From Saprospiraceae bacterium (GTDB lineage Bacteria; Bacteroidota; Bacteroidia; Chitinophagales; Saprospiraceae): a DNA stretch of 30,687 nt. Each line of letters starts with the position of its first letter. The first letter of the stretch is position 1. The notes below the pieces were generated by a model. That model worked only from the letters and a program-made list of their open reading frames with translations, made no database searches and was not told the DNA's origin. A program made the translations under genes and the position numbers. Location of the stretch: the NCBI GenBank assembly GCA_043718855.1, contig JAYSUY010000859.1:1-30687 (forward strand). Reading direction: 5' to 3'. This document shows, piece after piece, positions 7-9,184 of the stretch.

Positions 7-63
7 GGAATAAAAAGAGAGCGGCAACTGGGGTACCCGGTTGCCGCTCTCCTTTTTTATTCC
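7..63. terminator. Bidirectional intrinsic terminator-like hairpin
   Basis: GAGAGCGGCAAC (17-28) pairs perfectly with GTTGCCGCTCTC (40-51). Stem is extended by GGAATAAAAA / TTTTTTATTCC, giving A- and T-tracts on both sides. Confidence 0.75.
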
Positions 64-71
64 CCAAACAA

Positions 72-105
72 ACAAGAGCCGCCCCATCTCTGAGGCGACT
101 CCTGT
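72..105 (-). terminator. Intrinsic terminator of the tRNA gene; also part A of the direct repeat
   Basis: Minus-strand ACAGGAGTCGCC-N10-GGCGGCTCTTGT 12-bp stem (two G:U pairs) followed by TTGTTT, ~10 nt after the tRNA 3' end. 31/34 identical to 9067-9100. Confidence 0.75.
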
Positions 106-115
106 TTTTCTGCGG

Positions 116-189
116 TGGGCCCAGCAGGAATTGAACCCGCGACCGTCTGATTATGAGTCAGCTGCTCTAACCATCTGAGCTATGGGCCC
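116..189 (-). tRNA. tRNA with CAT anticodon, most likely tRNA-Ile2 (lysidine-modified); automated tools may call it Met
   Basis: Reverse complement GGGCCCATAGCTCAGATGGTTAGAGCAGCTGACTCATAATCAGACGGTCGCGGGTTCAATTCCTGCTGGGCCCA folds as a cloverleaf. G1:C72 and no GGG/CCC anticodon stem exclude the initiator. C4:G69 and C5:G68 match E. coli TilS determinants. CCA is not fully encoded (ACCG). Confidence 0.92.
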
Positions 190-209
190 GTTTGCTGTAA
201 ACAACGGCG

Positions 210-217
210 CAAAGGTA
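210..217 (-). promoter_or_regulatory. Bacteroidota sigma70 -7 box for the tRNA
   Basis: Plus-strand CAAAGGTA = TACCTTTG on minus, an exact TAnnTTTG match 20 nt upstream of the tRNA 5' end. No clear -33 TTTG. Confidence 0.7.
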
Positions 218-276
218 GCGCGAGTTCCAAGATTTGATGGGGAGTTTTTTGTGAAAACTGCTGTGCAGTTCGGGGG
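217..276 (+). repeat. Direct repeat part B (tRNA upstream region), copy 1
   Basis: AGCGCGAGTTCCA (217-229) = 9124-9136, and AAACTGCTGTGCAGTTCGGGGG (255-276) = 9163-9184 exactly, with a partly conserved segment between them. Confidence 0.85.
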
Positions 277-327
277 CGGCACTCCTGAATGCACAAGCAT
301 ATCTTGCACCCTAAAAATTTGCCTATC

Positions 328-2058
328 ATGCTCACTTTGGATAATTTTGAGGCAACCCTGACCTCCAAAATCGTGCAACGCGGCCACGAATATTTCAAAA
401 GTCAGGCCGTCGAAACCCTTGACGAAGACTCTCCCGGAAACTGGTCAGCGGTCGTTTCTGGCACCGAGGACTACGAAGTGGAGGTCGTGCTTTCCGGCAA
501 AACCGTCATGGAAACATCCTGCGATTGCCCTTACGATGGCGGTCCGGTCTGCAAGCATGTTGTTGCCGTACTGTATGCCTTGCGCGAGCAAGCAACAACG
601 ACGAAAAAGAAGCCCGGCAAACCCGGCAAGATGACTTTCGAGGATTTGCTGCTCAAAGTCAGTCTGGACGAACTCCGCAACTTCGTCCGTCACCAAAGGC
701 AGGGAGACCGCGAATTTGGCGAAAAATTCATGCTGTTTTTTGTTGAAAAAGACCCGGGTATAGATGTTTTGGGCAAATACGAGGGCTTGGTACGCGGCAT
801 CGTCCGCAGCAATTCCAGCCGGGGCTTCATGGAATACCGCCAAACTTTTGCCTTTGTCAAAGAAATCCGTTCAGTGCTGAATGCCGCTGACACGGCCATT
901 TCGCAGAAAAACTACCGCAACGCATTTGCCATCGCAAAGGTGATCTGCCAAGAAGTCATGCAACTGATCCAGACCAGCGACGACTCTGCCGGCAACATCG
1001 GTGGCGTGCTTTCATCAGGCATCCAGATTTTTGAAGACATCGCTGAGGCCGAAGCCACCAGCCCAGAACTGCTGAGCGAACTGCTCGGCAATTTAGAAAA
1101 GGCACTGGCAAACAAATCGTGGTTCGACTACGGCGATTATGGCTACGAGCTGCTGGCTGTCGCCGAAAAAACGGCCCTCCGAACCGAGCCAGGGACTTAC
1201 CTGCGCCTCTTGGATGCGCTGGCAAAAATCCACGTCGGGCAGTACAGCGACTACAAGCAAGACCATTTCAAAAAAGCGAAAATCCGGTTCTTGGAAAGCA
1301 TCGGTCGCGTGGAAGAAGCCGAAAAACTTGTTGCCGCCAACCTGGACGTTGTGGAGGTGCGGATGGGTGTCGTTCAGCAAGCCATTGAAAAACAGGATTT
1401 TATCAAAGCAAAGCGGCTCGTGGCCGAAGGCATCCAAATCGCTGAGGGCAAACAGCACCCCGGCACAGTCGCCAATTGGGAAAAGGTGCTGCTCGACATT
1501 GCCCAGCACGAAAACGACGTAGCGACGGCGCGCCATTTCACCCAAAAATTTGCCTTCGACCGGGGCCTGAACGTCAAATATTATCAGGCTTGGAAAGCCA
1601 CCTTCCCGCCTGTGGAATGGCCCGGGATCATCGAACAATACATCCAATCGGTGATGGAGAAAGAAAAAGCGAGGCCCCGCAAAGGCATCTGGGACAGCTT
1701 GGAACACGCCCTGTTCCTTCGGCTTTCGCCCGTTTTTATTCAAGAAGAGCAATGGGAGCGGCTGTTGAACTTCATCCCGAAAGACCCCGGAGAAAGCCCG
1801 CTTTCCACCGTTCACCCTTATTTGTCAAAACGTTATCCTAAGGAAATGCTGGCTCTCTACCTGCCCGTGCTGGAAAACCTGGGCGACAAGGCCAGCAACC
1901 GCAACGAATATCAGCGCCTCGCTGAACTGATGAAGAAGGTGAAACAGGACATAGAAGGCAGCCACGAGGCGGTAGAAGGGCTGGCCGCCGGGCTGATCCA
2001 GAAGTATCCGAGGCGGCCTGCTATGGCGGAGGAGATGAGGAAGGTGGTGAGGAGGTGA
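328..2058 (+). CDS. SWIM zinc-finger protein with C-terminal helical region (~576 aa; alternative ATG at 289)
   Basis: SWIM motif C-D-C-PYDGGPV-C-K-H (520-558) followed by VAVLYAL. N-terminus MLTLDNFE resembles that of the paralog at 25368-26732. Confidence 0.85.
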   Translation: MLTLDNFEATLTSKIVQRGHEYFKSQAVETLDEDSPGNWSAVVSGTEDYEVEVVLSGKTVMETSCDCPYDGGPVCKHVVAVLYALREQATTTKKKPGKPGKMTFEDLLLKVSLDELRNFVRHQRQGDREFGEKFMLFFVEKDPGIDVLGKYEGLVRGIVRSNSSRGFMEYRQTFAFVKEIRSVLNAADTAISQKNYRNAFAIAKVICQEVMQLIQTSDDSAGNIGGVLSSGIQIFEDIAEAEATSPELLSELLGNLEKALANKSWFDYGDYGYELLAVAEKTALRTEPGTYLRLLDALAKIHVGQYSDYKQDHFKKAKIRFLESIGRVEEAEKLVAANLDVVEVRMGVVQQAIEKQDFIKAKRLVAEGIQIAEGKQHPGTVANWEKVLLDIAQHENDVATARHFTQKFAFDRGLNVKYYQAWKATFPPVEWPGIIEQYIQSVMEKEKARPRKGIWDSLEHALFLRLSPVFIQEEQWERLLNFIPKDPGESPLSTVHPYLSKRYPKEMLALYLPVLENLGDKASNRNEYQRLAELMKKVKQDIEGSHEAVEGLAAGLIQKYPRRPAMAEEMRKVVRR

Positions 2059-2066
2059 GGTCGCGG

Positions 2067-3296
2067 TCAGAAGTTGAGTTTGTTTCCGTGCGCTATATTG
2101 AGCAAAAATTCCACAAACTCCGGGTAAAAAACCATGCGAAACTCAGTAGCCTTCAAGCGTTTGATCGCTTCGTCTTTTTCCAAGTCGTAAAAATCGACGA
2201 CCCGCTTGAAGATATCCGGGTCGTTTGTTTGTGTTCTTGCCTCGGTCAGTTTTTCGACAGTTTCACCTAAGTAAAGCAGCAGCGCAGGAAAGCCTTCGTG
2301 CTTGACGATATCTTCTTTCCGTTTTTGTTGAATGATCATGTCGTAGAAAAACTCCCTCTCGCTGGGTTTGAGGCGATCTTTTACTTTGGGGTGTTGAATC
2401 ACTTCTGCCGTGCGGAATCGAGCCATATCAAACCCGTCAAAGGCTCGCTCGACTGCTTTTTTGGCCGCATCAACCGTCATCATCAAGGCAATCGTCACAA
2501 TGACCTTATCGGGGTTGGCTTTGACCTTTTTGAGAAATTCTCGCTCAAAATCAGGGATGTTCAGTATTTGAATGTCCTCGTGATCGTGTCCCACATCGTG
2601 AAACAGCAACTCGTACTCTCGTGCTGATGTACTTCCCGGCTGGTACAAAAAAAGGCAAGCAGGCTTGTTCTTTTCGGGAGAAGTCAACAAATAATCCGTG
2701 ATTTCTCTAATGGCCTCCGGGGTTTCCGGAAGACTTCTGAATGTGCCTTTGGGCGACAGCACCAGCAGTGCGTGCCGGGCACTCGAGGCATCAACCACTT
2801 GTGCTACCCGCATGAATTTCGAGTTTTTGGCAAGTGTGCTGCCCAAGAAGCCGATGTCCACTTGTCCAGACTTTACCTTGTCGGCCACTTCTCCACTGAA
2901 ATAAAAACTGTGCTTAAAGCGGTCAAATCCGTTCAAATGCTTCCCAGGAACACTAAAAATCGGCTCGTCATCCGCCAAATCGGAGTAAGCCGTCAACTGA
3001 ACGTGCTTGAAAAATTCCTTCGTCATGGTCAGCCGCGGTTCCTGGTTTTTTGCCAACAGAGGTGCCGCCCAAAAGCCAGAACTGAATGCGATTTTTAACG
3101 GCTCATATTCCGAAAGCGGCAAGCCAAGATGAACACAAGCATTCTTAAAGTGCTCTTGTGAGCCAACCCCGTTTAACAATCGGCTAATGGTCCCTGGGTT
3201 GAGGCCGAGTTTTACTGCAAGTGCTTTTTGATTCCTGGGTTTGCCCGGCTTACCCAGTTCGTTTTTGATGCGTTGAGCGATTTTACCTTTGTCCAT
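2067..3296 (-). CDS. XRE/Cro-C1 HTH regulator fused to a putative type-2 periplasmic-binding-fold (SsuA/NMT1-like) sensor domain
   Basis: N-terminal QKALAVKLGLNPGTISRLLNG HTH. Then PLKIAFSSGFWAAPLL and FSGEVADKVKSGQVDIGFLGS, which resemble PBP2 substrate-binding motifs. No signal peptide. HTH is solid; the PBP2 call is pattern recognition. Confidence 0.7.
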   Translation of the reverse strand: MDKGKIAQRIKNELGKPGKPRNQKALAVKLGLNPGTISRLLNGVGSQEHFKNACVHLGLPLSEYEPLKIAFSSGFWAAPLLAKNQEPRLTMTKEFFKHVQLTAYSDLADDEPIFSVPGKHLNGFDRFKHSFYFSGEVADKVKSGQVDIGFLGSTLAKNSKFMRVAQVVDASSARHALLVLSPKGTFRSLPETPEAIREITDYLLTSPEKNKPACLFLYQPGSTSAREYELLFHDVGHDHEDIQILNIPDFEREFLKKVKANPDKVIVTIALMMTVDAAKKAVERAFDGFDMARFRTAEVIQHPKVKDRLKPSEREFFYDMIIQQKRKEDIVKHEGFPALLLYLGETVEKLTEARTQTNDPDIFKRVVDFYDLEKDEAIKRLKATEFRMVFYPEFVEFLLNIAHGNKLNF

Positions 3297-3307
3297 ATCA
3301 AAAATTG

Positions 3308-3365
3308 GTTGTCAATTTTGATGTAAAATTATCATTTATTGACAACACTGCAACACCCTGTTGCA
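3308..3365. promoter_or_regulatory. Candidate operators in the divergent promoter region
   Basis: Perfect inverted repeats GTTGTCAAT-N21-ATTGACAAC (3308-3346), AATTTT-N5-AAAATT (3314-3330) and TGCAACA-N3-TGTTGCA (3349-3365). Confidence 0.5.
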
Positions 3366-3508
3366 TACCCCAGAGCGAACCCAGCATCTTTGGCTCGACG
3401 CAGCCCAGGGCCTCCAAATTTCAAATCAGCATTTTCAGATGACTTTCTCGACTCGCAGCAGTGCTTGCTGCGGGCAAGGCATTGTTTTGTCAAACCAACC
3501 AACAGATT

Positions 3509-3979
3509 ATGGCACCTTCCAACAACTGCATTTGGGCTTTACTGGCGGCAGCCAGTGCAGGAGCCTTGATTTCGTTTCAAATTTTGGCTGAAACGGCCTT
3601 GAAAAACACCCTGAAAGGTGGGGTTTTCCACACTTCAGTCATCGCATTCGGCTCCGCCTTTGCTATTCTGGTCATGTACGGCCTCTGGAACGGGCTGAAA
3701 ATCTTCCCGGCTTTGGCCGAATTCAAGCCCCTTCGCGGGTTTGAGGTCTTCGGCGGGCTGACCAGAATCTTGTACCTCATTTTGGTGGTCTTTGCCTGTA
3801 CCCGGTTGGGCATTGCCAAAGCCACTTGCATTGTCATCAGTATGCAGGTTCTGGCCAGTTCTGTATTTCAGGCCAACGCACTCTTCGGCTCGCCGCTCAT
3901 TGGCTGGACTTGGGAAAAGACACTCGGCCTGCTTCTGCTGGTGCTCGGAGTCGTGTTGATGGTCGTAAAACGGGAATGA
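3509..3979 (+). CDS. DMT-superfamily transporter, YdcZ/DUF606-like (156 aa)
   Basis: About 5 TM helices. AGALISFQ, GGL, RLG...VISMQVLAS...LFG and LGLLLLVLGVVL follow the YdcZ pattern. ATG 3509 preferred over TTG 3461. Confidence 0.75.
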   Translation: MAPSNNCIWALLAAASAGALISFQILAETALKNTLKGGVFHTSVIAFGSAFAILVMYGLWNGLKIFPALAEFKPLRGFEVFGGLTRILYLILVVFACTRLGIAKATCIVISMQVLASSVFQANALFGSPLIGWTWEKTLGLLLLVLGVVLMVVKRE

Positions 3980-4048
3980 CCTCTTCTGTCCTTCCTGGTA
4001 AGGAACCGCCGATGAATACTATCTCTCAACATTTTAAATTCTATCAAA

Positions 4049-4513
4049 ATGCAAAATCAGGGACCAATAACATGGCCAACCATCATTGGGATTTTTTTAA
4101 GGTGGGTCGTAATCCCTGCAGTGTATAAGCCCACTCAAATTTATCTAGAAAACGACACGGGCCAAGACCTGACCATCACCCTAACTTATTATGAACGAGA
4201 TATCAGGGCCTCCTTCTCTCGATGGGAATTTTGGGAGGGCCAATGGCTGACAGGAACGTGTATCGTTTCCGCTGGAAGTGCGCAAATCATTGGCTCGGTG
4301 AAAGGGAATGGGAATCGAACGATAACGGTTCGCGCAACTGCTCCGGGAAAGCAGACTATACCCATGACTAAGTTTCTTCACCCCGTCGAATGGGGCCTCT
4401 TTGAAGACTCCTACCAAATGAGAATCACCCCTGACGACTTAAAGCCAGAGTTCGATCCAAGTAAGCTTCTCTTGTGGCCTTTGCGGGGCGGCTCCAAGTG
4501 GCCCCACCAATAG
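4049..4513 (+). CDS. Hypothetical protein (154 aa): short N-terminal hydrophobic stretch, then a beta-rich domain
   Basis: Open ORF with ATG after an AT-rich leader, co-directional with neighbours. Only a faint resemblance to DUF1036 (N-x-T...Y...W-x-x-G). Confidence 0.6.
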   Translation: MQNQGPITWPTIIGIFLRWVVIPAVYKPTQIYLENDTGQDLTITLTYYERDIRASFSRWEFWEGQWLTGTCIVSAGSAQIIGSVKGNGNRTITVRATAPGKQTIPMTKFLHPVEWGLFEDSYQMRITPDDLKPEFDPSKLLLWPLRGGSKWPHQ

Positions 4514-4585
4514 AAACGCTACTCTGTATCGGATGAAAGTAGCCCCTAAACAAAGTTCTCATTTCATTTTTCAACTATCAACATT

Positions 4586-5077
4586 ATGAAAGTTCTCAGT
4601 TTTCAAGGTAAAACCGTAATTGCCAGTAAAAAAACGACTGATTCCAGCACTGATTCCTGCTTCATTACCTTGGCAGCGATGTTTGGAGTTTTCTATTTCC
4701 TCGGTCATCTGGAGTACTATGGCCCCTATCTGCTTGTTGGTATAGTTTTTTGGATAACGGGCATTTTTTTCATAAATAGATGGCAAAAGAGAAGAAAGGG
4801 AGTGGTGATGGCAAAAAATTGGGATAATTTGAAAAACAACCAGACAAGTGTTTTAACCACGGTATTCGTTGAACGTTTAGAAGTGGGCATGGAGGGCGGC
4901 GGAACTGAAATGATTACAAAAATTGCTTTCGTCCACGGTTATTTTTATAGGGCTATAAACGAAACGGTAGAAGGCGACTATCATTTGTTTTTTAAAAATC
5001 GCCTGACACTGGAAATGCACCTGACTTACTGCCAATCTGACCCAGAGGTCTATTTCCTTTCTGAAATAGAGACATAA
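4586..5077 (+). CDS. Hypothetical membrane protein (163 aa, two N-terminal TM helices)
   Basis: Two hydrophobic segments followed by a basic stop-transfer RWQKRRK. AT-rich (line 4741-4800 is 19/60 GC). Confidence 0.65.
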   Translation: MKVLSFQGKTVIASKKTTDSSTDSCFITLAAMFGVFYFLGHLEYYGPYLLVGIVFWITGIFFINRWQKRRKGVVMAKNWDNLKNNQTSVLTTVFVERLEVGMEGGGTEMITKIAFVHGYFYRAINETVEGDYHLFFKNRLTLEMHLTYCQSDPEVYFLSEIET

Positions 5078-5160
5078 ACTCACTTCTGAAATTTCCTGTA
5101 CGCCTTCCGCCGTCTTCCATTTGAGCAGAAGGCAATCTCTTACATTCAAATTTGGTCATC

Positions 5161-7719
5161 ATGCAACAACAATCCGCCCCACTCGGGCCAGCCACTCCTT
5201 TGCTCGATCTACTCGACGATTTCCTCCCACCCGGAGAATCAGCAGCCCAATTCTTCGCCCTACTGAAAAAAACCCGGGGCAGCAAAAGCCAATTTAACAC
5301 CCCCTACAAAAACACCCTTCAGTCAGCCCTCACCGCCCCTGAGGCCGAACGCCAAAATGCCCGCACCTTAGAAAACATCACCGCTTGGAATTCTATCTGC
5401 ACTGTACTGCAGGGGGAGCGAAAAACCCCCGGCCTCGGTGGACACCTCGCCACATTTGCCTCTGCATCAACGCTGTACGAGGTACTTCAAAATCATTTTC
5501 TCCACGATGGGGAAGGCCTGGCTGCCGAAATTCTTCTGCCACAAGGGCACGCCAGCCCCGGTCTATACGCCCGCGCCTGGCTCGAAGGAAGGCTTTCAGA
5601 CGAGCAAATCGCCCTCTTCCGGCAGGAGACAATTGGTGGCCTGCCCTCGTACCCGCACCCACGCCGGATGCCTGATTTTTGGCAAGTGCCCACCGTCAGC
5701 ATGGGGCTTGGCCCGCTCACAGCCATTGCTTTGGCCCGAATGCGCAAGTACATCGTTTGCAGGGATTTGCACGAAAAAACGGAAGCGGTCGGGCGGGTTT
5801 GGGCATTCCTCGGCGACGGCGAACTGCTCGGCGAACCAGAGTCGCTGAGCGGAATTTGGCTCGCCGGAAAAGAGCGTTTGAGCAATCTTGTCTTTGTTGT
5901 CTCCTGCAACCTCCAGCGGCTCGACGGCCCTGTTCAGCCTTCCGGAAAAGTGATCCAGGAAGCCGAGCGCATTTTCCGGGCAGCAGGCTGGCTGGTTCTA
6001 AAAATAATCTGGGCCAGTGAGTGGGACTCGATTTTTGAACGCGACAAAAACGGAAAACTCCTCGCCCATCTCGAAGCCCTGCACGACGGTGATTTCCAAC
6101 AAATCGCGGCCTACACCGACGGGGGGAAAGTCCGAGCAAAACTCACGGGCGGCGACCCAGAAATCGCCGAAATCCTCGCCCCGTTGAGCGATGCCGAATT
6201 GCTCAATTTGCGCAGGGGCGGCCACGATGCCGAAAAGGTTTACGCCGCTTACGCCCATGCGGTTCAATCCGACCGCCCCGTCGTTATTTTGGCTAAAACA
6301 TTGAAAGGAAATAACTTAGGCTCAAAGATCGCTGCCCAAAACAATGCCCACCAGAACAAGGAAATGAGAGGAGATGACCTCGTGGCCTTCTGTCGCCGCC
6401 TCGAAATCCCGCTGAGCGACGAAGACGCAAAAGCCCTGAAATTTTACCGCCCGCCCGAAGACAGCCCCGCAATGCAATGGCTCCACGCCCGCAGAAAAGC
6501 TCTCGGCGGCTACTTGCCCGCCCGAAACGCGAAGGCGGATGCCCGCCTGCTGATTCCTCCCGACCCGTTTTTCAACTTGTACGATGCTGGAAAGAAAACC
6601 ATGTCCACGACCAAAGCCTTCGTCGAGATGCTCCGCGAAATGTTGAATCTGAGCAAGCAATTCGTGTTCATCGTCCCAGATGAGGGGCAAACTTTCGGGG
6701 CCGACTCGATTTTCAAAGAACAGCAGGTATGGAACCCCGTAGCCGACGAGGGCGTGGCCGCGCTCCCCGTTTTTTCCGGCCTGAAGGAAAGCCGAAGCGG
6801 TGGGGTTTTTCAGGAAGGCATCAACGAAGCAGGCGCATTGGCGACCTTCACCGCAGCAGGGACTTCCTACGCGCTGAATGGGGTTCCGCTTTGCCCCTTC
6901 TACATGTTCTATTCCATGTTCGGGTTTCAGCGCGTGGGCGACTCCATTTGGGCCGCTGCCGACGCTTTATGCCGTGGTTTTTTGCTTGGCGGCACGGCTG
7001 GGCGCACGACCCTCAACGGCGAAGGGCTACAACATCAGGATGGCCACTCCCACTTGCTTGCGCTGACCAACCCAGCGGTCATCTCCTACGACCCGGCCAC
7101 CTCATGGGAAGTCGCCTCGCTTGTGCGCACGGGTCTGCACCGGATGTTCGGCGACGCGGGCGGCGACCCAGATGTGATGTTTTACCTGACGCTCTACAAC
7201 GAAATTCGTCCCATGCCCGCTCGCCCGATAGAGGCGACCGACGAGGCCATCGCGCGGGGCATTTACCGACTGCAAAAAAGCGGCCTCGAACCGCAGAAAA
7301 GCCAGATCAAAGTCAACCTGCTCAGCTCTGGGACGATTTTGTTCGAAGCCCTCGAAGCAGCGAAATTGCTTGAAAACGAAGGCATTGCAACTGATGTCTG
7401 GAGCGTCACGAGTTGGACAGAACTCTACCGCGATGCCGATAACTGTCGCCAGCACAACTTGCTGAACCCCAGCGAGCCGCCCCGAAAACCGCACTTTTCT
7501 GAGGTGCTGGAAGCCGAAACAGGCGGCGTTTTCGTGGCCGTCAGCGATTGGATGCGCTTGTTGCCGGGCTGCCTCGAACCCTGGATTCCGGGGAGGTTCA
7601 TCGCTCTTGGCACCGACGGTTTCGGCCTCTCGGACAGCCGTGCCAACCTGCGCCAGCACTTCGGCATCAGCCCCGAACAAATCGTTTTTGCCGCCCAGCA
7701 ACTGCTGGCTCGCGGGTAA
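5161..7719 (+). CDS. aceE: Divergent homodimeric (AceE-type) pyruvate/2-oxoacid dehydrogenase E1 (~852 aa; TTG 5152 alternative)
   Basis: GGHLATFAS, QGHASPG, SYPHP, PTVSMGLGP, GDG...CNLQRLDGPV, AHQ, DEGQTFG, QEGINE, YSMFGFQRVGD, TTLNGEGLQHQDGHSH and GTDGFG.SDSR are all AceE-family motifs. Confidence 0.88.
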   Translation: MQQQSAPLGPATPLLDLLDDFLPPGESAAQFFALLKKTRGSKSQFNTPYKNTLQSALTAPEAERQNARTLENITAWNSICTVLQGERKTPGLGGHLATFASASTLYEVLQNHFLHDGEGLAAEILLPQGHASPGLYARAWLEGRLSDEQIALFRQETIGGLPSYPHPRRMPDFWQVPTVSMGLGPLTAIALARMRKYIVCRDLHEKTEAVGRVWAFLGDGELLGEPESLSGIWLAGKERLSNLVFVVSCNLQRLDGPVQPSGKVIQEAERIFRAAGWLVLKIIWASEWDSIFERDKNGKLLAHLEALHDGDFQQIAAYTDGGKVRAKLTGGDPEIAEILAPLSDAELLNLRRGGHDAEKVYAAYAHAVQSDRPVVILAKTLKGNNLGSKIAAQNNAHQNKEMRGDDLVAFCRRLEIPLSDEDAKALKFYRPPEDSPAMQWLHARRKALGGYLPARNAKADARLLIPPDPFFNLYDAGKKTMSTTKAFVEMLREMLNLSKQFVFIVPDEGQTFGADSIFKEQQVWNPVADEGVAALPVFSGLKESRSGGVFQEGINEAGALATFTAAGTSYALNGVPLCPFYMFYSMFGFQRVGDSIWAAADALCRGFLLGGTAGRTTLNGEGLQHQDGHSHLLALTNPAVISYDPATSWEVASLVRTGLHRMFGDAGGDPDVMFYLTLYNEIRPMPARPIEATDEAIARGIYRLQKSGLEPQKSQIKVNLLSSGTILFEALEAAKLLENEGIATDVWSVTSWTELYRDADNCRQHNLLNPSEPPRKPHFSEVLEAETGGVFVAVSDWMRLLPGCLEPWIPGRFIALGTDGFGLSDSRANLRQHFGISPEQIVFAAQQLLARG

Positions 7720-7746
7720 TTTTTCATGTCAAAATTTACGAAAACT

Positions 7747-9033
7747 ATGCTCACTGAATACAAAATGCCCGCACTCAGCAAGCCGGAAGACGACACTCAG
7801 ATAGAATACACCATTGGAAAGATCCTCAAGAAACCAGGCGACCTAGTGGCCGAAGGCGAAGAGGTGCTGGAAGTAGAAACCGTCAAAGCCAATAAAGCGA
7901 TCGAGTCTGAACACACGGGCATCATCGAAACCATTGTCGTCCGAGAAGGTCAGGAAGGCATCGTTGCCGGCGATTTGCTGTTCACCGTCCGCGTCGCTGT
8001 GGAACCGGAGGTTGCTGCGCCAACCACAATCGTGCAGCCCCCGGAACAGCTCGTTCAAGCGGAACTGCCGCCCGAACCGCTCGAAACTGCCGCCGTGCTG
8101 CCGCCCGTTTCAAAACCCAATTTGCCCAAACCCAAATCGCCGCTGCCTATCACACCGCTGGCACAGGAGATTGCAAACATCTGCTCAATAGAAATTTCAG
8201 ACATCGAAATCCCGCCGGGCAGCCTGCGCATCGGCTCAAAGATGGTGCTGGATGTCATCAAAAAACGGCTCTCAGCTGTGCCAGTTTCGAGCCTTCCGGC
8301 ACTTCGTCTGCCCGATTTTTTCGCCTTTGGCTCCATTCGTCGCGAAAAAATGAGCGGCATCGCCAAAGCCACCGCCAAAAATATGCAGGCTGCTTGGTCG
8401 AACGTCCCACACGCTTGGCTTATGGAAAAAGCCGACCTAACCGCACTCGAAACTTTCCGAGGAACGCACAAAGAAGCCGTCAAGCAGGCAGGGGGCAGTC
8501 TCACGGTCACAGTCATTGTGGCGAAAGCGGTGGCCGGTTTGCTTCGGAAATTTCCCCGCGTGAACGCGAGCGTGGACATGACCGCACAGGAAATCGTTTT
8601 CAAGGATTTCATCCACATCGGCATAGCGGTGGACACCGAGCACGGGCTGTTCGTACCTGTCATCCGCGACTGCGACCGAAAAAACATGGCCGAAATCGGG
8701 GCCGAACTGCTGCAGTTGTCATCTTTGGCAAAGGATAAAAAGTTGCCCCCGGAAAACATGGAAGGCGGTACATTCACCATCACCAACGTAGGCGGTATCG
8801 GCGGCACAAGCATTTTGCCTATCGTCAACGCCCCGCAAGCAGCCATTTTGGGCATGACCGCCGCCCAGACCGAGATGGTCTGGAACCCCGAAAAGCAGGC
8901 CGCCGAACCGCGGCCGTTGATGCAAATGACACTTGGCTTCGACCACCGATTGGTCAATGGCGGCGAAGCCGCCCGCTTTTTACGGCAGTTGAAAGCCATC
9001 TTGGAGACACCAGAATTGATGCTGGTGGTGTGA
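7747..9033 (+). CDS. aceF: Dihydrolipoamide acyltransferase E2 (one lipoyl domain, degenerate subunit-binding domain, catalytic domain), AceF-like; ATG 7726 alternative
   Basis: Lipoyl domain with ETVKA, Pro/Ala-rich linker, catalytic GGTFTITNVGGIGG...PIVNAPQAAILG and DHRLVNG. Confidence 0.85.
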   Translation: MLTEYKMPALSKPEDDTQIEYTIGKILKKPGDLVAEGEEVLEVETVKANKAIESEHTGIIETIVVREGQEGIVAGDLLFTVRVAVEPEVAAPTTIVQPPEQLVQAELPPEPLETAAVLPPVSKPNLPKPKSPLPITPLAQEIANICSIEISDIEIPPGSLRIGSKMVLDVIKKRLSAVPVSSLPALRLPDFFAFGSIRREKMSGIAKATAKNMQAAWSNVPHAWLMEKADLTALETFRGTHKEAVKQAGGSLTVTVIVAKAVAGLLRKFPRVNASVDMTAQEIVFKDFIHIGIAVDTEHGLFVPVIRDCDRKNMAEIGAELLQLSSLAKDKKLPPENMEGGTFTITNVGGIGGTSILPIVNAPQAAILGMTAAQTEMVWNPEKQAAEPRPLMQMTLGFDHRLVNGGEAARFLRQLKAILETPELMLVV

Positions 9034-9066
9034 AAACAGCAACCCTTATCAAACGGCCCCGTAAAG

Positions 9067-9184
9067 ACAGGAGTCGCCCCATCTCTGAGGCGGCTCCTGT
9101 TCGTTTGAGGCGACCCAGCAAGCAGCGCGAGTTCCACGATTCGCAGGGCAGATTTTTTACAGAAACTGCTGTGCAGTTCGGGGG
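9067..9184 (-). pseudogene. Second, degenerate copy of the tRNA locus: terminator, 3'-end remnant and upstream region joined, with ~88 nt including the tRNA body missing
   Basis: Offset to copy 1 is 8995 for part A and 8907 for part B. GAGGCGACCCAGCA (9107-9120) resembles GCGGTGGGCCCAGCA (112-126), the tRNA 3' end. The -7 box is lost. Confidence 0.65.

Follow-up and report, generated by a model that had tools for sequence, protein, structure and literature searches.

What is the role of a second, strongly divergent copy of the first two components of the pyruvate dehydrogenase (PDH) complex in a genome that also encodes a canonical one? This question is raised by a 30,687-nucleotide stretch of DNA from a Saprospiraceae bacterium (hereafter the window), which is one whole contig (C1030) of a metagenome-assembled genome (MAG) with 1186 contigs and a completeness of 88.7%. 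At positions 2067-9033 a regulator gene on the minus strand is divergent from five co-directional genes on the plus strand, encoding a YdcZ-family protein of the drug/metabolite transporter type, two orphan proteins (orfA and orfB), an AceE-type E1 and an E2. The same gene layout had been described in an earlier annotation based on the letters of the window (the sequence-only reading), and it is confirmed here. We conclude that the cassette is real, rare and conserved: a sensor-regulator and YdcZ are combined with a divergent E1/E2 pair, beside a housekeeping PDH. As to its role, our leading though still tentative explanation is an accessory, separately regulated, inducible and privately docking 2-oxoacid dehydrogenase module that is PDH-like (of the AceE/AceF kind).

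Since the sucA gene of the window contig is single-copy and genus-like (it is the sole copy in the MAG and 71-81% identical to that of five same-genus genomes), the contig belongs to the host genome. Chimerism of the MAG as cause of the two AceE copies could be ruled out on the same grounds. A check for canonical PDH genes elsewhere in the genome revealed a second, canonical aceE on contig C216 (1168 bits on TIGR00759), whose product is 87% identical to a database AceE placed among Saprospiraceae sequences in the tree. The genome has four E2 genes, of which the copy on contig C307 is a canonical PDH E2 (81% identical to a Saprospiraceae E2), and two lipoamide dehydrogenase (lpd, E3) genes are found on the other contigs C332 and C685. 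With canonical aceE and E2 present, the earlier proposal that the window pair is an extra copy and not the housekeeping PDH is well founded.

All 24 same-genus genomes examined carry exactly one AceE, which is the ortholog of the C216 copy and shares 51-54% identity with the window E1; this makes AceE a native gene of the genus. The window E1/E2 pair was found in none of these 24 genomes. The assumption that AceE is foreign to this lineage has to be abandoned accordingly, given also that the window E1 nests in the Saprospiraceae AceE clade. At the level of the family the premise that AceE is atypical holds better: beyond the genus it was found in only 9 of 150 other genera, in one copy each and polyphyletic. 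A second AceE was seen neither in the 24 genus genomes nor in these nine AceE-bearing genera. The patchy and polyphyletic distribution suggests several independent acquisitions in the Saprospiraceae. The claim that the window module was itself acquired by transfer is plausible but no more than that, and the GC content at third codon positions (GC3; 0.66 for E1 and 0.64 for E2) matches that of host genes. Another trait that had been highlighted, the lack of an adjacent E3, turns out to be ordinary. In genomes of the family and in metagenome relatives, E2 comes behind aceE, either at once or with a few inserted genes in between; lpd never takes this place. Consequently, the absence of an E3 gene from the 30.7-kb window is not special to this locus, as unlinked lpd is the normal situation for AceE-type PDH loci in Saprospiraceae.

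The pair is very rare. In a set of 5.8 billion clustered proteins, the closest non-self match to E1 is 53% identical and that to E2 46%, and no ortholog of either was detected in any relative searched (with none closer than 53%, the ratio of nonsynonymous to synonymous substitution rates could not be computed). In phylogenetic trees both proteins fall into the Saprospiraceae PDH clades or branch off at their base, on end branches of 1.45-1.9 substitutions per site against medians of 0.11-0.22. There is one other full instance of the cassette, on a 5.7-kb metagenome contig from a public sequencing run (L056). Here a regulator is divergent from YdcZ, which is followed by an open reading frame (ORF) of 132 amino acids with one transmembrane (TM) segment at its N-terminus, an AceE-type E1 and the start of an E2. 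Identity to the window is 46% for E1 and 36% for the regulator (36-40%), and the L056 regulator is the top-scoring relative of the window regulator in a HMMER search. Conservation of the same order at such deep divergence makes chance adjacency unlikely. The suggested co-occurrence of this E1 clade with the regulator and YdcZ is thus found again on an independent, deeply diverged contig.

A further tight E1-E2 pair of a divergent lineage is present on two short contigs (L077/L078). Its E2 has no Asp before the lipoyl-Lys and has a lipoyl-domain insertion and a shortened linker in common with the window E2. The careful E1 tree groups the sequences as (window,(L056,L077)) with support of 91/89 (96/92 for L056 with L077), sister to the canonical clade of the genus and with end branches of 1.45 and 1.22 against a median of 0.17. 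As its branches are long, the three-member E1 clade is probable but not certain; the grouping withstood approximately unbiased (AU) tests on earlier data sets. Moreover, the window E1 and the L056 E1 both deviate at five of the AceE-invariant columns (hypergeometric p = 0.012), which hints at a shift shared by the two. Overall, the E1/E2 sub-clade seems to be rare, fast-evolving and confined to Saprospiraceae; a metagenome scan with the L056 E1 retrieved only a generic aceE-aceF locus.

Despite the long branches, the catalytic machinery is largely retained. The window E1 scores above the cut-off of the aceE equivalog TIGR00759 (924.1 bits, with 859.9 required) and stays far below that of TIGR03186, the model for the 2-oxoglutarate exception. 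Among the 192 columns that do not vary across 35 canonical AceE proteins from several phyla, 173 are retained in it (176 in L056; leave-one-out retention of the canonical proteins is 96-100%). Equivalents of E. coli H106, H142, Y177, D230, N260, H407, E571, E636 and H640 are all present, and alignment to E. coli E1 shows that the GDG...NCN motif for thiamine diphosphate (ThDP) and Mg is kept. The E2 catalytic domain (PF00198, 7e-77) has the DHR-x-x-x-G motif at residues 406-412. In E2, 85 of 98 invariant columns are retained, and the position usually held by Ser or Thr has a Thr. In the lipoyl domain (PF00364, 4e-12) the lipoyl-Lys is present and the preceding Asp is replaced by Val (V-K); because the host's own GcvH naturally carries V-K before its lipoyl site as well, lipoylation of the window E2 is plausible by analogy. 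Taken together, the evidence points to E1 and E2 being working enzymes, and the long intact frames over approximately 1.5 substitutions per site argue for purifying selection.

The most interesting element of the locus is the jointly neutralised docking interface between E1 and E2. In E. coli the E1 N-terminus (55-58 residues) binds to E2 at its docking or peripheral-subunit-binding domain (PSBD), where H327, P330, R333, R337 and R354 make the contacts (PMC10849603; PMC6270654). The first 60 residues of 11 canonical AceE proteins, including the host's own, contain 10-13 acidic residues (net charge -3 to -7). The window E1 has only four (net +1), and the conserved acidic helix motif resembling W-L-E-A-L-E-E is missing. 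The E2 side is changed to match. Docking domains of 15 related E2 proteins have a net charge of +3 to +6 and a first helix resembling A-R-K-R-A-K, against A-Q-E-I-A-N and a net charge of 0 in the window E2. The equivalents of H327, R333 and R337 are lost and only those of P330 and R354 are kept; a search with PF02817, the Pfam model of this domain, gives no match in the window E2. The description of the pair as remodelled was thus correct, with partner surfaces altered on both the E1 N-terminus and the E2 docking domain. Because both sides of the contact lost their charges together, the pair probably docks privately and is insulated from the housekeeping PDH. As E3 is normally held by these basic residues too, its docking on this E2 may differ from the usual mode.

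Changes are also seen near the active centre of the window E1. The outer active-centre loop (541-557 in E. coli) has a 5-residue deletion and has lost the G-Q-x-Y and Y-(K/R)-E elements, both of which are retained in L056 and L077, and the DGPV-x-x-x-GK segment after the ThDP motif is changed. In E. coli this loop matters for catalysis, as the D549A mutation lowers kcat more than 100-fold (PMC6270654). The acidic N-terminus is kept by the L056 E1 and the basic docking domain by the L077 E2. The matched loss of charges fits co-evolution toward private docking, though it could instead be early decay of a redundant copy.

The regulator had been described as a ligand-sensing protein with an XRE head and a sensor domain of the type-2 periplasmic-binding-protein (PBP2) kind, and both parts find support. 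On its own the window protein has an HTH_3 match of 16.8 bits, which is below the cut-off. At family level the XRE-type helix-turn-helix (HTH) is clear: members reach 4e-7, and the family profile matches XRE, HipB and 434-repressor structures. An AlphaFold model from eight family members (mean pLDDT, the predicted local distance difference test score, 88.6; predicted template modelling score, pTM, 0.81) has a helical bundle at residues 3-57. For residues 59-407 Foldseek (against PDB and Swiss-Prot models) returned TauA, SsuA, Thi5/NMT1, MqnA and HisG with E-values of 1e-8 to 1e-6 and probability 1.0. Whole LysR-type regulators match the model too, and a language-model feature search agreed with the PBP2 fold. 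The model thereby supports a two-lobed sensor domain of this type. A profile comparison of the sensor domain with PhnD-family proteins was dropped, since the relatives have no such proteins and the fold search settled the question.

The same logic is known from LysR-type regulators, which combine a DNA-binding head with a PBP2 sensor and lie divergent from their target genes. They have their PBP2 fold in common with the TauA/SsuA/NMT1 solute-binding proteins and, according to the model, with the window protein (Foldseek E approximately 1e-8, TM-score by target 0.55-0.61). However, the window head is an XRE (lambda-Cro-like) HTH instead of the LysR winged helix, and at the level of sequence there is no family match. 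The regulator family is small, as an exhaustive HMMER search among 1.8 billion proteins yields only about 15 representatives, and within species-representative genomes it was found in Saprospiraceae only. A word-based homolog search returned only the query itself, and of 40 relatives one has the regulator, without E1/E2. For locus scanning an alignment of six sequences was used, the one of eight being too diverse; it detected four genome loci, with E1/E2 in none of them, and no metagenome locus.

YdcZ matches PF04657 with 56.1 bits (cut-off 24) and has five hydrophobic segments, yet it is far weaker than typical YdcZ of the family (100-149 bits). Typical YdcZ genes of 12 other genera were considered and rejected as unrelated to AceE, as those genomes have no AceE. 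Neither YdcZ nor orfA or orfB has a match in the 40 relatives. orfA has the same position and architecture as the 132-amino-acid ORF of L056, and orfB has no counterpart there. Both orphans are atypical in composition; they have no family match and no detectable homologue in any search, and an Atlas search returned hypothetical clusters only. orfB might have been inserted late, or might not be a gene.

These observations show the paralogy, the conserved gene order, the folds and the residue patterns; from them the following working scheme can be proposed. The XRE-HTH/PBP2 regulator would sense a small molecule and act on the inverted repeat of the 212-bp promoter region, so controlling expression of YdcZ, the small membrane proteins and the E1/E2 pair, presumably as one transcript. 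YdcZ would carry a small carboxylate across the inner membrane. E1 with ThDP would decarboxylate a 2-oxoacid, most probably pyruvate or a close homologue, and acylate the single lipoyl domain of its own E2, which would hand the acyl group to CoA. Re-oxidation of the lipoyl group would be performed in trans by one of the two unlinked lpd products.

Several observations weigh against an accessory module of this kind. The conserved order rests on two cases, with L056 as the only other full instance, and even there the correspondence is partial: the YdcZ proteins can hardly be aligned with each other (24% identity, E 0.018), L056 has no detectable homologue of orfA or orfB, and the inverted repeat of the window promoter is not common to it. 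Support for the clade of three E1 proteins, which is made up of long branches, is not strong, and the matching E2 grouping in the best tree has a support of only 22. Most loci of the regulator family (L057, L058, L060, L061-L064 and L079) carry other cargo, often small membrane proteins and once a major facilitator superfamily (MFS) transporter. No recognisable promoter or terminator pattern was found that supports a single operon. Finally, the loss of charges and the rewritten loop occur in the window copy alone, which fits relaxed selection on a redundant copy too.

This last point leads to the first alternative, in which the pair is an old duplicate or xenolog of the family aceE-E2, now dispensable to the cell and under relaxed selection, and its neighbours are unrelated cargo of an island. 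Docking surfaces and mobile loops would be the first parts to decay in such a copy, and exactly these (acidic N-terminus, basic docking residues, part of the outer loop) were lost in the window, in a genome with a canonical PDH. The very long end branches, the atypical composition of orfA and orfB and the severe effect of D549A in the E. coli loop (a more than 100-fold drop in kcat; PMC6270654) fit this as well. Nonetheless, frames of 852 and 428 codons have stayed intact over some 1.5-1.9 substitutions per site, 90% of the AceE-invariant columns remain and none of the catalytic residues checked is lost, gene order is maintained with L056 at 36-46% identity, and GC3 is host-like. Moreover, both partners have changed at matching surfaces, unlike what random decay would produce. 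We therefore regard a decaying duplicate as unlikely.

An ordinary PDH isozyme, brought in from an unsampled Saprospiraceae lineage through an island at the tRNA side and lying beside the regulator and YdcZ by chance, is in our view no less doubtful. It would readily explain that the E1 passes the aceE equivalog model and that the standard gene order in the family has E2 directly behind aceE. The duplicated tRNA flanks on either side of the block, the candidate defence gene inside it, and the patchy, polyphyletic AceE distribution pointing to frequent transfer would fit too. What it leaves unexplained is that the same regulator family and YdcZ lie upstream of the related L056 E1, as a double chance adjacency is unlikely. 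Besides, the E1 clade evolves much faster than every sole-copy AceE sampled, and the block has no integrase.

A more specific proposal, which we consider improbable as a whole, is that the E1 proteins of window, L056 and L077 represent a Saprospiraceae-specific AceE/E2 sub-family for an imported 2-oxoacid other than pyruvate, switched by the XRE-PBP2 regulator. The window lineage would then have abandoned the contact between acidic E1 and basic PSBD for a private assembly, possibly without E3 recruitment through the docking domain. The sequence-only reading had gone further and suggested a repurposed pair for a non-standard reaction (on a non-standard 2-oxoacid, yielding an acyloin or a glycolyl-type unit for a natural product); this is very improbable, for it is favoured only by an analogy, by the rewriting of the outer loop and by the change in the DGPV-x-x-x-GK segment, whereas the E1 scores as an aceE equivalog, the acyltransferase motifs of E2 are intact, no catalytic residue checked has changed, and the 30.7-kb window holds no acyl carrier protein (ACP), nonribosomal peptide synthetase (NRPS), polyketide synthase (PKS) or tailoring gene. 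The analogy is with the PDH-like E1/E2 of the naphthyridinomycin and quinocarcin pathways, where ThDP E1-like and lipoyl-E2-like proteins are used outside central metabolism; these lie in biosynthetic clusters with carrier proteins and NRPS.

Compared with the E. coli-type PDH complex (AceE, AceF, Lpd), the window pair has the same domain set with E1 directly followed by E2. It differs in having one lipoyl domain instead of the three of AceF, Val instead of Asp before the lipoyl-Lys, an E1 N-terminus that is not acidic, a docking domain without three of the five contact residues and the shortened, rewritten outer loop; it also has no lpd in its operon (normal for Saprospiraceae) and is a second copy with its own regulator. 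The nearest relatives by tree and identity (53% and 45%) are the canonical Saprospiraceae AceE-E2 loci (C216/C307; L029, L030, L083-L088), the last six being those of the family genomes G070, G066, G092, G122, G127 and G043. They resemble the window in the E1-then-E2 order and the unlinked lpd. In contrast to the window pair they have retained an acidic E1 N-terminus, a basic docking domain and DK as lipoyl motif, evolve 5-10 times slower and have neither the regulator nor YdcZ beside them.

Paralogous 2-oxoacid dehydrogenase complexes must avoid mixing of their subunits, by a mechanism that has been little studied. A natural E1/E2 pair in which both textbook docking sides are neutralised while the catalytic machinery is kept makes such insulation between complexes testable. 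The locus also offers a first genomic context for a divergent YdcZ branch and for the XRE-PBP2 regulator family, both uncharacterised and the latter so far seen in Saprospiraceae only. Activated sludge and aquatic habitats harbour Saprospiraceae in abundance; should the substrate be something other than pyruvate, a new catabolic route would come with the cassette.

The features of the locus are collected in Table 1. Alignment to relatives sets the E2 start at ATG 7747, by which the E1-E2 gap, earlier given as 6-27 nucleotides, is narrowed to 27; by the same approach the likely start of YdcZ is ATG 3509 and not GTG 3461. The other gaps between plus-strand genes of the cassette measure 69-83 nucleotides.

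Table 1. Positions of the cassette, its subparts and the surrounding features in the window.
Feature	Position	Strand	Evidence
Left boundary repeat: hairpin, tRNA(CAT) at 114-189 (-), tRNA upstream region	62-276		
SWIM zinc-finger protein; within repeat-bounded block, outside conserved cassette	289-2058	+	Pfam SWIM 3.9e-6; PADLOC PDC-S62 1.5e-13
Regulator, 409 aa: XRE-type HTH (~residues 1-60), predicted PBP2-fold sensor (~residues 63-407)	2067-3296	-	
Divergent promoter region, 212 bp: 9-bp inverted repeat 3308-3316 / 3338-3346, half-site 3487-3493	3297-3508		
Divergent YdcZ-family DMT (drug/metabolite transporter) membrane protein, 5 predicted TM segments	3509-3979	+	PF04657 6e-15; hydropathy
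orfA: orphan, one N-terminal TM segment and domain of ~125 aa	4049-4513	+	
orfB: orphan, two TM segments, low GC (0.40)	4586-5077	+	
Divergent AceE-type (homodimeric) E1, 852 aa	5161-7719	+	TIGR00759
E1 N-terminal docking segment, rewritten	~5161-5295		
E1 outer active-centre loop, rewritten	6736-6804		
Divergent E2, 428 codons: one lipoyl domain, docking domain, catalytic domain	7747-9033	+	
E2 VK lipoyl motif	7876-7890		
E2 docking helix 1 without basic residues	8155-8187		
E2 DHR motif	8941-8961		
Right boundary repeat: copy of tRNA flanks without tRNA; hairpin 9063-9110	9057-9184		

The palindromic sites reported for the shared promoter are reduced to one: the 9-bp inverted repeat is present and perfect, and a third half-site lies at 3487. 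No terminator-like site occurs in the gaps between the five plus-strand genes, and such sites are no commoner in the region than in shuffled sequence. Scans for the Bacteroidetes -7 motif and for sigma-70 promoters were uninformative, and Rfam detected no riboswitch or other element beyond the tRNA. The hairpin at 9063-9110 could also serve as terminator of the E2 transcript.

The repeats that had been reported to bound the block were verified at 80-88% identity (62-115 matches 9057-9110 and 217-276 matches 9124-9184). The tRNA(CAT) is found in the left copy only and is cleanly missing from the right one. Both flank segments are repeated on the window contig alone, the hairpin part having one weak partial match on contig C513 as well. 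The 9-kb block in between looks like a variable island beside a tRNA. In relatives the right-flank genes are kept, the upstream neighbours differ and the tRNA is absent; as these genomes are too rearranged, an empty insertion site could not be demonstrated by synteny. For the upstream genes no phage family match was found. As a separate observation, tRNA(CAT) flanks duplicated 9 kb apart would fit an old Campbell-type insertion of the block, although it contains no integrase. The SWIM protein inside it matches the PADLOC candidate defence family PDC-S62 over residues 14-236 and has no match in five same-genus genomes.

Some minor observations were made on PDH loci and E2 genes elsewhere. The AceE copies of genomes G066/G122, G043 and G127 branch among Acidobacteriota, Actinomycetota and other non-Bacteroidota. 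Canonical aceE and E2 are split by inserted gene pairs in related Saprospiraceae contigs (L030:3573-7576 and L031:648-2305); the pairs encode AAA_15/AAA_21-type ATPases and a conserved protein of approximately 205 amino acids without Pfam match. At this place L029 has two proteins of some 200 amino acids. In L089 (G013:C21:52500-60500, ~1912-4586) the only aceE of a same-genus genome is split by a frameshift near 2590-2697, with in-frame TGA stops reported by the genome search, which indicates either a pseudogene or an assembly error. A 422-amino-acid E2 of the host genome, of SucB or branched-chain type (G000:C592, L033), has E-K instead of D-K at its lipoyl-lysine. Matches of the window sucA in two genomes of the genus (G009:C17:117552-120347 and G005:C23:406539-409349) are reported to have in-frame stops near the N-terminal part, which may be related to the in-frame palindromic insert that the sequence-only reading had noted in the window sucA. 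Lastly, an Rfam match to the Plastid-ycf2 5'UTR at 115-189 on the plus strand (56.9 bits, below the gathering score of 65.7) lies opposite the tRNA strand and is almost certainly a by-product of the tRNA.

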